A stretch of DNA of 64,000 nt. It comes from Spirochaetia bacterium. GTDB taxonomy: Bacteria; Spirochaetota; Spirochaetia; DSM-2461. The stretch is taken from positions 160,001-224,000 of the forward strand of contig OY764216.1 in the NCBI GenBank assembly GCA_963668315.1, in the 5' to 3' direction. Positions 34,172 through 40,538 of the stretch are shown piece by piece; position 1 is the stretch's first letter, and each line of letters opens with the position of its first letter. The position numbers and the translations under genes are program-made. The notes beneath the pieces were generated by a model that saw nothing but the letters and a program-made list of their open reading frames with translations, made no database searches and was not told where the DNA came from.

Positions 34172-36595
34172 TTACATTTTCAGGGGAAAGCCGCCCTTTT
34201 CCAGAGTGGCCACAACCCTATCCTCCGCCTGTCTCAGGAACTCGGGGGTCAGGGTCTTCTCCCTGTCCAGGAAGGTGGTCCGCAGGGTAACGGCCTTCTG
34301 TTCTTCACTCATCTTGAAAATATCCACGATCTTCACGCTCTCCGCCTCTTTGATCTTCAGCTTCCTCATAACGGCGAGAATATCTCCCGCCGGCGTATGG
34401 GCATCGGCAACGACGGTGCAGTCAAAGTCGCTGGAGGGGAACTTGGGCAGAGGCTGATACCGGGTTTTGTCCTTGATCTCCCTGTCCATGAAGTCGGTGA
34501 TATCGAAAACGGCCACAGCCACATTACCCTTGATCTTGAACTGCCTGGCCATCACGGGGTGAACCGTATTGATAAAACCGCAGTTCTTGCCCATGACCCG
34601 AATATTCAGGAACTCATTGGGATGAACGCCGGGCCAGTCGGCGGGGATGAGAGAGTTGGGAAACTTCTCATCCGCCGGAGTAAACTGGGCGTTCAGATTC
34701 AGATAATTCATCAGAGGCTGCATCACATTCTGAAGGTCCATAAAGGGGGAATCCTTCCTGTCGAAGAACACCACACCGAGCTGGTAGCGGTCCTTGCTGA
34801 ACGCCTTTCCCTCCCCCTCATCATAGGAGCGGGCCAGCTCGAAGAACCGGAAGGAGGAGAAGTTTTTCTGATTCTGGGCGGCCTTTTCCAGAAGACTGGG
34901 CACCATGCTGGGACGCATGCGGCTCAGTTCGGGGGAAAGGGCGTTGACCAGGGTCAGCTTTTCGTTCTTAACCGGCCAGGAGGCCTGTTCCAGAAGCTTC
35001 TCGCCTATCATGGGATAGGTCATGATCTCCAGAGCCCGGCCGTTGAATACCATGAAATCCTGTATCTTCCGCTGCAACAGCTTGGCATCGGAAAGACGGG
35101 TGGTTTCGGCCAGGTTAACCGGAGAGACGGGAGTGATATTGTCGTAGCCGATAACCCGTCCGATCTCCTCGATGATATCCGCCTCGAACTCGATATCCTT
35201 GGTGGCCCGGTAGCTGGGCACTTCCACATTCAGCATATCCCCGTCGACACCCACCTTGAAATCGAGGGATTCCAGGATAGCCACAATCCGCTCAAGGGAG
35301 ACATCCGTTCCCAAAACCCGTGCGATCTTGGAGGCGGAACAGGAAATCCTCAGCTCCGCCGTGGGCTGAATACCGTCTTCCTGCATGGTTCCCACGACAA
35401 CGGCCTCGGGGCAGCTCTCCCTGACCAGCTCGACCAGCCTCAAGATCGTCTGCTCCAGCATATTGGTATCCAGGCACTTCTCATACCTCTGGGATGCATC
35501 GGTACGAAGTCCCAGTCTCACGCTGGTTTTTCTGATATCCGCATCCTGCCAGTTGGCCGATTCGAGGAAGATCTTCGTGGTGGAATCCTTGATGGAACTG
35601 TCCAGGCCGCCCATGATGCCGCCGATACCGGACATACGTTCCTTGTCGCAGACCATGGTGTCCGTGGCGATCATCTTCCGTTCCTGCTCATCCAGGGTCA
35701 CGAAAACACCCTCTTCGCCCATGCGCCGCACGATAATCTCTCCGCCCTTGATGGTGTCCCGGTCGTAGATATGGTTGGGCATGCCCGTTTCGAGCATGAC
35801 GTAGTTGGAAATGTCCACGATATTATTGATAGGCCTCATACCGCAGGCGTTCAGCCGGTCCTGCATCCACTGGGGACTGGGTTTGATCGTGATGTTATCC
35901 ATGGAAATACCCTTGAATCCCAGGCAGCAGGAGTCCTTGTCCACATGAATGGTCACCGGGGGCTTCTCATCGGTATAAAGCGTCTTCAGCCCCGCTTTCC
36001 ACTCGTCGGAAAAAACATTCTTGAGGGGCTTGCCGAATACGGCGGCGAACTCCCGGGCCATGCCGTAGTGTCCCCACAGATCGGGCCGGTGGGTGATGGA
36101 CTTGTTGTCTATGTCAAAGATAATATCGCTCGCGGCTCCCAGATACTCGGCCAGGCTCATGCCCACCGCCGCGTCATCGGAGAGAATCATCAGCCCCTCA
36201 TGGTCGTCGCTCAGGCCCAGCTCGTCCTCGGCGCAGAGCATCCCCTCCGATTCGATGCCCCGGATCTTCTTGGGCACCAGGGTAAAACCGCCGGGAAGAG
36301 TCGTGCCGATGCAGGCGAAGGGAACTTTTTTCCCCACTTCCACGTTGGGAGCGCCGCAGACAACCCGCCTCTCCCCCTCGCCGGTCATAAAGGTGACCAG
36401 ATTCAGCTTATCCGCATCGGGATGCTTCTCAATGGCGGTAATCTCGACAACCTTGACGGCCCGCAGATGCTCGCCGGACGTCTCCACCCCTTCCACCTCG
36501 CAGGTGGCCAGGGTAAAGCGAATGCCCAGTTCCTGGGGGGTAATATCCTCGGGGAGATCCACGTAATCCTTAATCCAATTAATGCTTATATTCAT
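34172..36595 (-). CDS. pheT: Phenylalanyl-tRNA synthetase beta subunit (bacterial type)
   Basis: HPDADKL, VVCGAPNV, SEGMLC OB-fold, DIIEEIGRVIGY, C-terminal anticodon-binding domain; 807 aa. Confidence 0.97.
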   Translation of the reverse strand: MNISINWIKDYVDLPEDITPQELGIRFTLATCEVEGVETSGEHLRAVKVVEITAIEKHPDADKLNLVTFMTGEGERRVVCGAPNVEVGKKVPFACIGTTLPGGFTLVPKKIRGIESEGMLCAEDELGLSDDHEGLMILSDDAAVGMSLAEYLGAASDIIFDIDNKSITHRPDLWGHYGMAREFAAVFGKPLKNVFSDEWKAGLKTLYTDEKPPVTIHVDKDSCCLGFKGISMDNITIKPSPQWMQDRLNACGMRPINNIVDISNYVMLETGMPNHIYDRDTIKGGEIIVRRMGEEGVFVTLDEQERKMIATDTMVCDKERMSGIGGIMGGLDSSIKDSTTKIFLESANWQDADIRKTSVRLGLRTDASQRYEKCLDTNMLEQTILRLVELVRESCPEAVVVGTMQEDGIQPTAELRISCSASKIARVLGTDVSLERIVAILESLDFKVGVDGDMLNVEVPSYRATKDIEFEADIIEEIGRVIGYDNITPVSPVNLAETTRLSDAKLLQRKIQDFMVFNGRALEIMTYPMIGEKLLEQASWPVKNEKLTLVNALSPELSRMRPSMVPSLLEKAAQNQKNFSSFRFFELARSYDEGEGKAFSKDRYQLGVVFFDRKDSPFMDLQNVMQPLMNYLNLNAQFTPADEKFPNSLIPADWPGVHPNEFLNIRVMGKNCGFINTVHPVMARQFKIKGNVAVAVFDITDFMDREIKDKTRYQPLPKFPSSDFDCTVVADAHTPAGDILAVMRKLKIKEAESVKIVDIFKMSEEQKAVTLRTTFLDREKTLTPEFLRQAEDRVVATLEKGGFPLKM

Positions 36596-36606: not shown

Positions 36607-37650
36607 CTAGTACGCCTTGAACTGCTCATAGAACCGCAAATCCCCGCCGTGCAAATGGCGGATATCGTCAATCTGATAACGCATCATGACCAGCCGGTCC
36701 AGCCCCAGCCCGAAGGCGAAACCGTTCCACTCGGCCGGATCGATACCGCCGGCACGCAGGACGTTGGGATGGACCATACCGCAGGGCAGGAGCTCCACCC
36801 ATCCGCTTCCCTTGCACACCTTGCAGCCCTTGCCGCCGCAGATCAGGCACTCGATATCCAGCTCGAAGCCGGGCTCCACAAAGGGGAAAAATCCCGGACG
36901 CAGGCGAATGTTCATATCCTTGTGGAAAACTTCCGAAAGGAGAGTCTTCATAAAGTAAATCAGGTTGGCCACGGAAATATCCTTGCCCACCATCATGCCC
37001 TCCAGCTGGTGGAAAGCCATCTCATGGCTGGCGTCGGTGGCCTCGCAGCGGAAAACCTTTCCCGGGCCCACGAACTTCAAAGGCGGCTCGTTGGCCTCCA
37101 TGCCCCTAATCTGGATACAGGAGGTATGGGTTCTGAGAAGGTGCTCCATGTCGGCGAACCAGAACGTATCCTGCATATCCCGGGCCGGATGGGTGGCGGG
37201 AATATTCAAAGCCTCGAAGTTGTGAAAATCATCCTCGATGTGGGGACCGTCCAGAATATCGAAACCCATGGAAATAAAAATATCCTCGATCTCCCTCTGT
37301 ATAATCGTAACCGGATGGAATCCGGCGGCCTGGAGTCCCTTATCGAGAACATCGTCGGTCAGGGTGATATCCTGCCAGCTTTTCTCCAGCTTGGCGTTCA
37401 CCTCGGCCTTCTCAATTTTGGCCAGCTGCTTCGCCAGGGTATCCAGAATCTCCTGTTTGAACTCGTTCGCCCTGGCGCCCACGCTTTTTCTCACGTCGCC
37501 GCTGGCCTCGCGCATACCCCCCAGGATATCGTTCAGCTTACCCTTTTTCCCCAGATAATCCGCCTTGAACTCGGCCAGACTATTCTGATCCTTCAGGTCC
37601 TCCACGGACTCACGGAATTCTTTCTTCAGTTCTTCCAGCTTCTGCAGCAT
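36607..37650 (-). CDS. pheS: Phenylalanyl-tRNA synthetase alpha subunit (bacterial type)
   Basis: HPARDMQDTF, LRTHTS, FFPFVEPG and GFAFGLGLDRL motifs; 347 aa. Confidence 0.97.
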   Translation of the reverse strand: MLQKLEELKKEFRESVEDLKDQNSLAEFKADYLGKKGKLNDILGGMREASGDVRKSVGARANEFKQEILDTLAKQLAKIEKAEVNAKLEKSWQDITLTDDVLDKGLQAAGFHPVTIIQREIEDIFISMGFDILDGPHIEDDFHNFEALNIPATHPARDMQDTFWFADMEHLLRTHTSCIQIRGMEANEPPLKFVGPGKVFRCEATDASHEMAFHQLEGMMVGKDISVANLIYFMKTLLSEVFHKDMNIRLRPGFFPFVEPGFELDIECLICGGKGCKVCKGSGWVELLPCGMVHPNVLRAGGIDPAEWNGFAFGLGLDRLVMMRYQIDDIRHLHGGDLRFYEQFKAY

Positions 37651-37666
37651 GGTCTCCTCCAGACAT

Positions 37667-37690
37667 AAAAAAAGCTCCCCTGAGGGAGCC
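37667..37690 (-). terminator. Attenuator terminator in the pheS leader
   Basis: Minus strand GGCTCCC-TCAG-GGGAGC-TTTTTTT, 16 nt upstream of the pheS start. Confidence 0.85.
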
Positions 37691-37718
37691 GCTCGTTCAC
37701 TTTAAAAACAGGACTCCC

Positions 37719-37784
37719 TCATTCACCTTTTCCAAAAAAGAAAAAAGAGATAAAAAAGCTGAAAAAGAAGGCTTTTCCCGTCAT
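37719..37784 (-). CDS. Phe-rich leader peptide (pheM-like), MTGKAFFFSFFISFFFFGKGE
   Basis: 21 codons, 9 of them Phe, lying between a consensus promoter and the leader terminator of pheS. Confidence 0.85.
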   Translation of the reverse strand: MTGKAFFFSFFISFFFFGKGE

Positions 37785-37794
37785 ATTGCTATTC

Positions 37795-37822
37795 ATTATA
37801 GGCAAATATGATTTTGTGTCAA
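37795..37822 (-). promoter_or_regulatory. Sigma70 promoter of leader-pheS-pheT
   Basis: TTGACA-16 bp-TATAAT, both hexamers perfect consensus. Confidence 0.85.
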
Positions 37823-37878: not shown

Positions 37879-37947
37879 CCGGGCTTTCCATGGCTCCGCT
37901 CCCGCTCCGGCCGCCTCCGGCGTCGGCTCCGCCCCATTCCAATCCCT
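37879..37947 (-). ncRNA. Flavo-1-like structured RNA/repeat, copy 2
   Basis: Minus strand reads AGGGATTGGAATGG...CCATGGAAAGCCCGG, the same terminal architecture as 13676-13760. Confidence 0.6.
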
Positions 37948-38054
37948 GTTTGTGTCCCGAACAGGGATTGGAGCCACCGCTTTCAGCCATAAAAACAGCC
38001 CGAAAAATTGTTCACACCGGTTTCACATTCCTTTCACCGAGAGGGAAAAAAGGA

Positions 38055-38084
38055 TTGACAGTTCATGAAAATGACCTTTAAAAT
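38055..38084 (+). promoter_or_regulatory. Sigma70-type promoter of the large lipoprotein gene
   Basis: TTGACA-18 bp-TAAAAT, 9 nt before the ATG. Confidence 0.6.
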
Positions 38085-38093
38085 GAACGCCTT

Positions 38094-40538
38094 ATGAAAA
38101 ATACACTACTGTTCTTATTGTCAATCACCCTTATATTGACAGGATGTCCCGGACCTAGCGATACCTCATCGCCAGTCATTACTCCCGATCCCCAGGACCC
38201 GGCGAAAACGGGAAACAGCATAACTCTGTTCGAATTCAGACAGACGGACAATTCCTTCCTGGCCGAGGACTACTCCTGTCTTATCGACGATTCGGCCCAC
38301 ACCGTGACCTGTGAGCTGCCCGAGAGCTACTCGGACCACCTGAACTCCCTTATCCCCTATATCGAAATAAGCGACGGAGCCACCATCTCCCCCGCTTCGG
38401 GAACGGCGGCGGACTTTACTTCCTCCCTGGTCTTTACGGTCACTGCCGAAGACGGCACCGCTCAGACCTATACGACTACAGTCACGACCTACAGCGAAGC
38501 GGATCGACAGGACAGCAGCCTGTCCAATATTATTATGTACAAGGAAGGCGGTTTCGACCTGGATATGGACTTCAACACCTCAACCACGATCTACGAAGTC
38601 AACACCACCTCTTCTGTGGAATCGGTTCGTTTTAAATGCACAACAACATCATCCCTGGCCACCGTTAAAGCCTGGAAAGAGGGAGAATCCCCGGAAACCC
38701 CCAATTCCTACGGCTACACCTCTTACTTGAATCTGGACGACGGCCTGAATACCTTCAATATAGAAGTGACATCCTATGACCAGTCGTCCACGACTACCTA
38801 TGTAATAAAAGTAACCAAGGGAGACGATCTAACTGTTTCTGTCGGGGAAGGCTGGACCACGGGACTTCTCACTGACGACGAGGAGCTCACGGAAAACGGT
38901 TTTCTCTGGTACTCCTTTCCCGCCGAAGTGGGCCACTACTATCAGATTGCCGTCGACGGAGACAACGAATCGACCTATTCCGATTGCTGGACTCCGGATA
39001 ACGGCGGCTGGGAAGACTCTTCCGGAAATGGCCCCACCGCCCATCCTTACTATAATGTCTACCGGGAAGACGGGACGACCCTTTACGAGACCCCCGAACA
39101 GGATGAGACGACCATACCCATAGATAGCACAGTTTATTCAGAGTACATGAGCGGAGATTACAAATATTACGTAACCATACAAGCCCTGGATGAAAATGTT
39201 AAGATAAAGATTACTCAGCATGAATCTTCCAATGTCACATATGCCCACACATTCGCCATCCAGGTCAGGGAGCGAACAGACTTCCCCGAACCGATTGAAG
39301 TGAGCGAAGGCGCGTGGTTTGAAACGTCCGTACCGGAAGTGACCGATCTCTGGACCTACTACGATGTGCCAACCTACCACCTCACCATGACGGAGGGTGT
39401 CCGCTACCGCGTCGGCATCGATGACGGGACGAACACCTGGGACGACGACGGCGGCTGGAACACGGCGGGCGTCGGAGTGTCTACAACCCCCACTGCCAGC
39501 CAGGTTAAAATGCAGCTTCTCACGCCCGCAGGAGACAACTACGACTACGAAGAGGGCGATTCCGGATGGGTTGATACGGACAGAAGCGGCACCAGTGAAA
39601 GACGTTTCGCCACCATAACAGCCCTCGATTCGGACGTGTACATGGAGGTCGATCCCAGTTCCTCGGGGACTTTCGCCATTCAGTACAGGCCGGTCGTACT
39701 CTCGGTGACAGCCATCGCCACTTCAACGGAGTGGCTCGATGTGGTTCAGACTGAAACACCAGGCTACTGGGGACAGGAGTGGCATTTTTCCTTTCCCGTC
39801 GAGGCAGGTAAAACCTACCGTATGGCCGTGGACGACCGGGGCGACGATGACGATGTCAACTGGACGGTTGATAAGGGTGGTTCGGCCAATACGGAGGAGA
39901 CCTACCTGGTATACCGCATCCTGAAAAGCGACGGAACCAGTGCTGAGTTCAAAGAGGACTGGAGAGAGGCCTATTATGACGGGAACTGGTACAGAGCGGA
40001 TGAGAGCGATACTATCCCTCCCAGCGATGATCAGAGGCGTTATCTAACCTTCACAGCAGAGGAGACCTCGGTTATGACCATGGAAGTTAAAAATGTCCTC
40101 TATTATGTTTCGGGAACATTCGCCGTGCAACTGAGGGAACTTCCTGAGCCAACAGAAATACCAGTTGACAACGACTGGCACGGACAGACCTTTGCCCAGG
40201 AAGGTGATCCCTGGGATATGGGAAATTACTCAGCCTTCAGCTTTCCATCCACTGCGGGAACGACCTATTACATTTCGGTCGACGGAGCTGCCGGCGGATG
40301 GACTCCGTCCAACGGGGGCATGTCCACTGTGCCTACGGCATATGTATATTATGTGGATGCACCGGGCCCCTATTATACGACTAGAGAAAACTTCAATTCC
40401 AGCAACGATTATTATCTCACAATTGAAGCGGATTCAGATAGGGAAGCTATTTACTTCTGGACCTGGGATTCTACGGGTAATACGGGCCTCACCTATGGAA
40501 TAAGAATAAGCACCACGGAGCCTATTATAGAAGAATAA
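38094..40538 (+). CDS. Large acidic surface lipoprotein (Ig/cadherin-like domains plus four repeated beta-sandwich modules)
   Basis: LTGC lipobox; GATISPASG...FTVTAEDGTAQTY and LNLDDGLNTFNIEVTS...TTTYVIKVT Ig-like signatures; four C-terminal repeats. Confidence 0.85.
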   Translation: MKNTLLFLLSITLILTGCPGPSDTSSPVITPDPQDPAKTGNSITLFEFRQTDNSFLAEDYSCLIDDSAHTVTCELPESYSDHLNSLIPYIEISDGATISPASGTAADFTSSLVFTVTAEDGTAQTYTTTVTTYSEADRQDSSLSNIIMYKEGGFDLDMDFNTSTTIYEVNTTSSVESVRFKCTTTSSLATVKAWKEGESPETPNSYGYTSYLNLDDGLNTFNIEVTSYDQSSTTTYVIKVTKGDDLTVSVGEGWTTGLLTDDEELTENGFLWYSFPAEVGHYYQIAVDGDNESTYSDCWTPDNGGWEDSSGNGPTAHPYYNVYREDGTTLYETPEQDETTIPIDSTVYSEYMSGDYKYYVTIQALDENVKIKITQHESSNVTYAHTFAIQVRERTDFPEPIEVSEGAWFETSVPEVTDLWTYYDVPTYHLTMTEGVRYRVGIDDGTNTWDDDGGWNTAGVGVSTTPTASQVKMQLLTPAGDNYDYEEGDSGWVDTDRSGTSERRFATITALDSDVYMEVDPSSSGTFAIQYRPVVLSVTAIATSTEWLDVVQTETPGYWGQEWHFSFPVEAGKTYRMAVDDRGDDDDVNWTVDKGGSANTEETYLVYRILKSDGTSAEFKEDWREAYYDGNWYRADESDTIPPSDDQRRYLTFTAEETSVMTMEVKNVLYYVSGTFAVQLRELPEPTEIPVDNDWHGQTFAQEGDPWDMGNYSAFSFPSTAGTTYYISVDGAAGGWTPSNGGMSTVPTAYVYYVDAPGPYYTTRENFNSSNDYYLTIEADSDREAIYFWTWDSTGNTGLTYGIRISTTEPIIEE

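Follow-up and report, generated by a model that had tools for sequence, protein, structure and literature searches.

A candidate ribosome-mediated attenuator with a near-leaderless, Phe-rich leader ORF upstream of pheST in Spirochaetia

Results

Organization of the pheST locus

The window, a 64,000-nt stretch of contig OY764216.1 (positions 160,001 to 224,000, Spirochaetia bacterium assembly GCA_963668315.1), carries pheS and pheT on its minus strand, and both gene products score above their NCBIfam cut-offs (TIGR00468 and TIGR00472). The features of the locus are, in order of transcription:

37817..37822, minus strand: -35 box TTGACA; a TTG-type -35 box is also present in 28/29 modelled leaders
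37795..37800, minus strand: -10 box TATAAT, with a 16-nt spacer from the -35 box; the promoter matches the consensus at 12/12 positions
near 37788-37787, minus strand: predicted transcription start, from the genome's leaderless peak 6 nt after the -10 box
37719..37784, minus strand: pheM-like leader ORF, 21 codons, 9 Phe (6 UUU, 3 UUC), without a Shine-Dalgarno (SD) sequence
37784 (start ATG) and 37721-37719 (stop TGA), minus strand: ends of the leader ORF; the ATG lies 10 nt past the -10 box
37734..37769, minus strand: block of Phe control codons (codons 6-17); the last Phe codon begins 15 nt before the antiterminator
37707..37782, minus strand: predicted anti-antiterminator (1:2) hairpin, outer helix pairing 37782-37776 (codons 1-3) with 37713-37707
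37681..37721, minus strand: predicted antiterminator (2:3) hairpin, 16 bp, starting at the leader stop codon
37667..37690, minus strand: predicted intrinsic terminator (3:4), 7-bp stem, UCAG loop and U7 (stem-loop 37690-37673, T7 37673-37667)
37654..37660, minus strand: pheS SD GGAGGAG; SD pairing is found at 29/29 pheS starts
36607..37650, minus strand: pheS, bacterial-type PheRS alpha subunit, 347 aa, ATG at 37650
34172..36595, minus strand: pheT, PheRS beta subunit, 807 aa

A preliminary description, made from the sequence alone, had recognized a perfect TTGACA/TATAAT promoter, a 21-codon ORF with nine Phe codons at 37784-37719, and a hairpin with a T7 tract just before the pheS SD; all three were recovered where it had placed them, the U7 terminator lying 23 nt before pheS. 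Six promoter-like sites were counted, vs 1.2 +/- 0.9 in shuffles. Across the genome we counted 670 strong promoter-like sites. Four of them lead into a nearby ATG that opens a short ORF with a terminator behind it, and among these four the pheST leader alone has an amino-acid run. A longer leader beginning at the in-frame ATG 37796 was rejected: it overlaps the -10 box, and is present only where G follows TATAAT.

The surrounding sequence holds several further features. Upstream of the pheST promoter lie a strong intergenic 14-bp inverted repeat (37938-37972) and a divergent promoter (38055-38094, plus strand), the latter facing an 814-aa lipoprotein-like ORF that begins with an ATG 9 nt past the -10 box and has no NCBIfam match. 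The 30 nt spanning the terminator (37661-37690) also occur, without a mismatch, between genes of Synechococcus phage S-CAM7, which is probably convergence.

Distribution of the leader among pheS loci

PheS searches yielded 92 distinct loci with usable starts, of which 28 have a promoter-linked Phe-rich ORF; one more (L035) has the Phe-rich ORF and lacks the promoter match. The closest named PheS records in these searches point to a spirochaete as host of the query. The promoter-linked ORF filter returned nothing for 12 spirochaete pheS loci, nor for any of 50 loci belonging to Bacteriovoracia-type or other hosts (two of these loci had <60 nt upstream). Phe-rich ORFs at four Bacteriovoracaceae-type loci (L104, L157, L160 and L161) have no promoter and were judged to be chance. 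Additional leaders were recovered from 80 metagenome loci (six), a family census (one) and a profile search (eight, used as a held-out set), so that the leader design is found in 44 pheS loci from at least seven families of the class. As the genomes are kin, these counts are not independent. The profile, run over 141 class genomes, contains no base pairs and therefore scores sequence only; all 24 of its strong matches (E<=3e-9) lie before pheS, in seven families, and matches weaker than 1e-8 were treated as noise, 0/6 of those checked lying near pheS. A phylum-wide DNA pattern search was uninformative, its reversed control matching about as often and the query itself being missed.

In the census of 31 genomes from the family, leaders are present in 3/3 assessable g1 genomes, 10/10 of g5, 3/3 of g3 and 0/3 of g4. 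The genus g2 features a Phe-poor variant (2-4 Phe), seen with a terminator and an ATG 6-7 nt past the -10 box at four loci; of its remaining loci, two have no U-tract and three have nothing. The absence of the terminator from two g2 loci suggests a move to translational control. The Phe-poor leaders of g2 loci L245, L246, L247, L249, L018 and L019 share a short conserved motif, and, separately, L007, L113 and L116 carry similar palindromic REP-like inserts between terminator and pheS. A Phe leader is absent from all seven loci that encode a long PheS (506-545 aa); this long form corresponds to the archaeal-type PheRS known from Spirochaeta, Treponema and Borrelia (PMC3191353).

The Phe-rich leader as a coding sequence

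Any run of U reads as Phe whatever the frame, so we assessed frame bias. The Phe blocks of 29 leaders contain 241 Phe codons in frame; reading the two remaining frames gives 114 and 131. TTC triplets are the more telling, with 65/68 starting at codon position one in the 29 leaders first modelled and 13/16 in the eight held-out leaders. In the alignments of subfamilies A, B and D, every indel inside the ORF has a length divisible by three (subfamily C has zero ORF indels, and the mixed group E aligns poorly). Outside Phe, the 20-29-aa peptide is conserved in neither sequence nor length. The UUU:UUC ratio is 183:67 in the leaders vs 16:43 in pheS and pheT of the query genome, a preference that is suggestive only, because base composition varies between hosts. 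On these sequence patterns, the Phe-rich leader ORF is under coding selection.

Predicted near-leaderless initiation

The ATG lies 8-12 nt past the -10 box in 28/28 promoter-linked leaders, most often at 10 nt (two at 8, two at 9, 17 at 10, five at 11 and two at 12), and SD pairing is absent before 28/29 leaders. The query genome also contains a leaderless class, in which 44 long-ORF ATGs lie 6 nt past a -10 box vs ~4-5 at background gaps; the sharpness of this genome-wide peak points to leaderless mRNAs being common in this spirochaete. Comparison of the leader gap of 10 nt with this peak at 6 nt therefore predicts a 5' UTR of 3-4 nt. These data favor the near-leaderless translation that had been proposed from the query sequence, the transcription start being a predicted one. 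In Caulobacter reporters each extra 5' UTR nucleotide is described as lowering leaderless initiation (10.1101/2020.05.06.081141). Given that cost, the conserved offset would be either a tuning device or the mark of a shifted start at promoters that mostly have a 16-nt spacer.

A predicted antiterminator/terminator switch

Folding, which the preliminary description had suggested, recovers the terminator and a 16-bp antiterminator hairpin at 37721-37681 (-21.2 kcal/mol, z -4.5, 0/200 shuffles as good; duplex p=0.003 in a shuffle test). The 10-bp pairing, with one G-U, that it had drawn between the segment at the leader stop codon and the terminator forms the base of this hairpin. When the 5' strand of the antiterminator is removed, the terminator folds, in line with the mutual exclusivity claimed for the two structures. 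With the ribosome footprint set to end 13 nt after the A-site start, the modelled probability of the query terminator is ~0 whichever Phe codon occupies the A site, and rises to 0.8-0.9 once the ribosome is at least two codons beyond the last Phe. In the family as a whole, 4-18 nt separate the first base of the last clustered Phe codon from the antiterminator strand, which begins at or just past the stop codon in the query's subfamily and within the final codons of the leader in most others.

Folding to full equilibrium favors the terminator in ~21/29 leaders wherever the ribosome stands, and the switch, visible in the query, is not seen in most relatives; in those leaders it would thus depend on kinetic order. 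We modelled cotranscriptional folding by cutting the RNA at the terminator loop. The terminator 5' arm was then captured with a probability of 0.66-1.0 when the ribosome was on Phe codons and <=0.30 when it was at the stop codon, in 27/29 leaders (L006 and L009 gave no switch), and 7/8 held-out leaders gave a clear switch in the same test. The antiterminator duplex is better than shuffles (p<=0.05) in 19/29 leaders and 7/8 held out, and a hairpin with a U-tract follows 29/29 modelled and 8/8 held-out leaders, at 20-189 nt from pheS in the modelled set.

We divided the leaders by hand into six subfamilies, between which the stem sequences are replaced while the layout is kept. Duplex energies average -18.8 kcal/mol for cognate strands vs -13.5 kcal/mol across subfamilies, although the cognate duplex beats all foreign partners in only 10/29 leaders. 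The preliminary description had proposed looking in relatives for Phe-rich upstream ORFs and for compensatory changes: the former recur before pheS; the latter are modest, 1/9 pairs being changed on both sides in the query's subfamily and 5/15 in subfamily D. The value for the query's subfamily is not significant (33/500 shuffles as high), and its set includes two decayed copies.

A probable third hairpin

A further hairpin at 37782-37707, absent from the preliminary description, was predicted at -24.4 kcal/mol (z -2.1, 6/200 shuffles as good). It captures the 5' strand of the antiterminator, and we consider it, from modelling, to be probably an anti-antiterminator. The naked, ribosome-free RNA has two alternative folds that differ by 0.4 kcal/mol, a margin too narrow to favor either termination (superattenuation) or read-through of untranslated RNA. 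Pairing between the first 15 nt of the leader ORF and a segment near the stop codon beats shuffles (p<=0.05) in 19/29 leaders, the set in which the helix was first noticed, and in only 3/8 of the held-out leaders. In the subfamily D fold, 4/14 pairs of this helix are changed on both sides.

Val and Thr leaders in the query genome

The query genome features two further leaders of this design. A 30-codon near-leaderless ORF with six Val codons and a terminator precedes valS (L287, G000:C1 2931215, plus strand), and a 24-codon near-leaderless ORF with six Thr codons and a terminator precedes asd (L311, G000:C1 466043, minus strand). In three separate leaders of one genome (pheST, valS and asd), the amino acid thus fits the downstream gene. 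Both had been missed by the strict genome scans because their -10 boxes are off-consensus. Leaders were found at 4/24 valS loci (3/4 in g1, plus a g6 genome) and at 3/12 asd loci, all of them g1 (the query and two same-genus genomes). The query genome additionally contains a T-box-like element (L111:1501-1815; 71 bits against a cut-off of 93) before a thrS-like gene, with an apparent ACC specifier read by eye. Its presence alongside the Phe, Val and Thr leaders suggests that T-box and ribosome attenuators coexist in this genome.

A shared pheST and leader in Desulfobulbales

A quick, unrooted PheS tree places the proteins from Desulfopila (L035, 83%) and from Desulfogranum (L034, 85%) together with that of the query (SH-aLRT 99), and in each of these genomes, as in that of L112, the query-type pheS is the sole copy. 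The other Desulfobulbales sampled have a PheS of only 41-47% in 60/60 genomes, and a promoter-linked leader was found in 0/13 of those checked. L035 retains a seven-Phe ORF, antiterminator and terminator; in L034 and L112, also of the Desulfobulbales, the start codon is ATA and the antiterminator strand is lost. Two genomes of family f7 have a PheS of 87-88% and a leader of the same type, and another f7 genome has the long form. On sequence grounds, it is likely that the pheST operon and its leader sensor moved together, the direction probably being into Desulfobulbales.

Discussion

A model for pheST attenuation and its alternatives

The element is real and conserved and very likely functional, its function being read from sequence and folding models. 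We are highly confident that the pheST leader acts as a ribosome-mediated transcription attenuator sensing Phe-tRNA, the reading already put forward in the preliminary description and now strengthened by coding selection, a conserved layout and the modelling of ribosome positions. When Phe-tRNA is low, the ribosome would stall within codons 6-17 with its footprint ending before 37721, allowing the 16-bp antiterminator to take the terminator 5' arm ahead of synthesis of the 3' arm, and pheST would be transcribed. When Phe-tRNA is plentiful, the ribosome would move at least two codons past the last Phe and cover the antiterminator strand, such that the U7 terminator could form. Upon ribosome release, the first codons and the Phe codons would likely re-pair with the antiterminator strand in the 1:2 hairpin, which would keep the off state and mask the leader start region.

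Two other accounts must be weighed against attenuation by a translating ribosome. The U-rich stretch could be untranslated and the element RNA-only, comprising either an antiterminator to which a protein binds or a premature terminator that acts constitutively and holds read-through at one level. That any U-run reads as Phe, that the leader has no SD, and that its predicted 3-4 nt UTR exceeds the genome's leaderless peak are all compatible with such an element; however, an untranslated stretch would not be expected to hold TTC in one frame (65/68 and 13/16), to preserve that frame through indels, to keep its ATG at a set spacing from the -10 box in 28/28 promoter-linked leaders, or to match its amino acid to the downstream gene three times within the query genome, and we regard this account as very improbable. 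Alternatively, the ORF may be translated while control is exerted by sequestration of the pheS SD, or by the peptide itself as an arrest peptide or small membrane protein. In the query, pairing between the terminator 5' arm and the SD 23 nt further on is conceivable; the peptide is hydrophobic; and g2 loci L018 and L019 have a short leader that lacks a U-tract, the SD region there being covered by the predicted folds. Against this stand the hairpin and U-tract after every one of the 29 modelled leaders, at distances of up to 189 nt from pheS, and a peptide that varies in both sequence and length once Phe is set aside; control of this kind appears improbable, if slightly less so than the RNA-only account.

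Implications

Beyond the attenuator itself, we offer tentatively a joint reading that we think possible and rather doubtful as a whole. Free-living spirochaetes may run a set of near-leaderless attenuators (pheST, valS and asd), whose tuning would come from a conserved UTR of 3-4 nt and from a helix over the first codons, with one ribosome judging each transcript; the pheST version may be a portable module that has crossed phyla, sensor included, replacing the synthetase genes already there, and that is decaying in one recipient. What is new here is the probable 1:2 helix, the likely acquisition by Desulfobulbales of pheST along with its leader, and the Val-rich valS leader and Thr-rich asd leader. 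The 44 natural variants provide material for a missing Rfam family and for the reannotation of unannotated leader ORFs. They comprise a natural series (intact, Phe-poor, terminator-less and decayed after transfer) in which to ask how an attenuator is timed without an SD, and they offer a case of regulation travelling along with a transferred synthetase operon.

Comparison with known systems

The preliminary description knew of no such system in spirochaetes, and our literature search likewise found no report of ribosome-mediated attenuation in this group, the broadest comparative survey lying outside that search. The survey in question, by Lopatovskaya et al. in 2010, reportedly contains no spirochaete attenuators. 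Elsewhere, spirochaetes are not mentioned in the main text of PMC2965389, and are mentioned in PMC4833913 only for leader-gene spacing. These data would therefore extend ribosome-mediated attenuation to a bacterial class for which the search found no report.

The Rfam search gave no T-box match at pheST, the single match in the genome lying elsewhere. T-boxes (RF00230) sense uncharged tRNA through a terminator/antiterminator choice, whereas the spirochaete pheST leader would sense through the ribosome. Over its full length the element is matched best in Rfam by Phe_leader (RF01859), at 21.6 bits (E 0.44), and membership of that family was rejected, its gathering threshold being 55.

The closest mechanistic parallel is E. 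coli pheM-pheST, described as comprising a Phe-rich leader ORF, alternative stem-loops and an intrinsic terminator (PMC5371410, PMC1262725). The spirochaete leader shares all three before pheST; unlike pheM, it has its own promoter and a near-leaderless start, and does not lie downstream of rplT. SD-led leader peptides are given as the rule in E. coli (PMC4007540), and we found no evidence of common ancestry between the two attenuators.

In its predicted start, the spirochaete leader resembles Deide_20901 of Deinococcus deserti, annotated as a putative, leaderless leader peptide of the Phe-tRNA ligase operon and likewise a short ORF without an SD at the extreme 5' end of the pheS transcript (PMC4007540). 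Deide_20901 is one of 14 such D. deserti leaders, among which is one for asd and none for valS. Its mapped transcription start coincides with the A of the ATG, whereas a 3-4 nt UTR is predicted for the spirochaete leader; D. deserti belongs to a different phylum, and the likeness is one of annotation. The polycysteine short-ORF attenuators described ahead of mycobacterial operons (10.1101/834739) are similarly leaderless and rich in one amino acid, although the amino acid and the phylum differ. The proposed mechanism is thus of the textbook, pheM-like type and introduces no new one, and a leaderless Phe leader has a precedent in the annotation of D. deserti.
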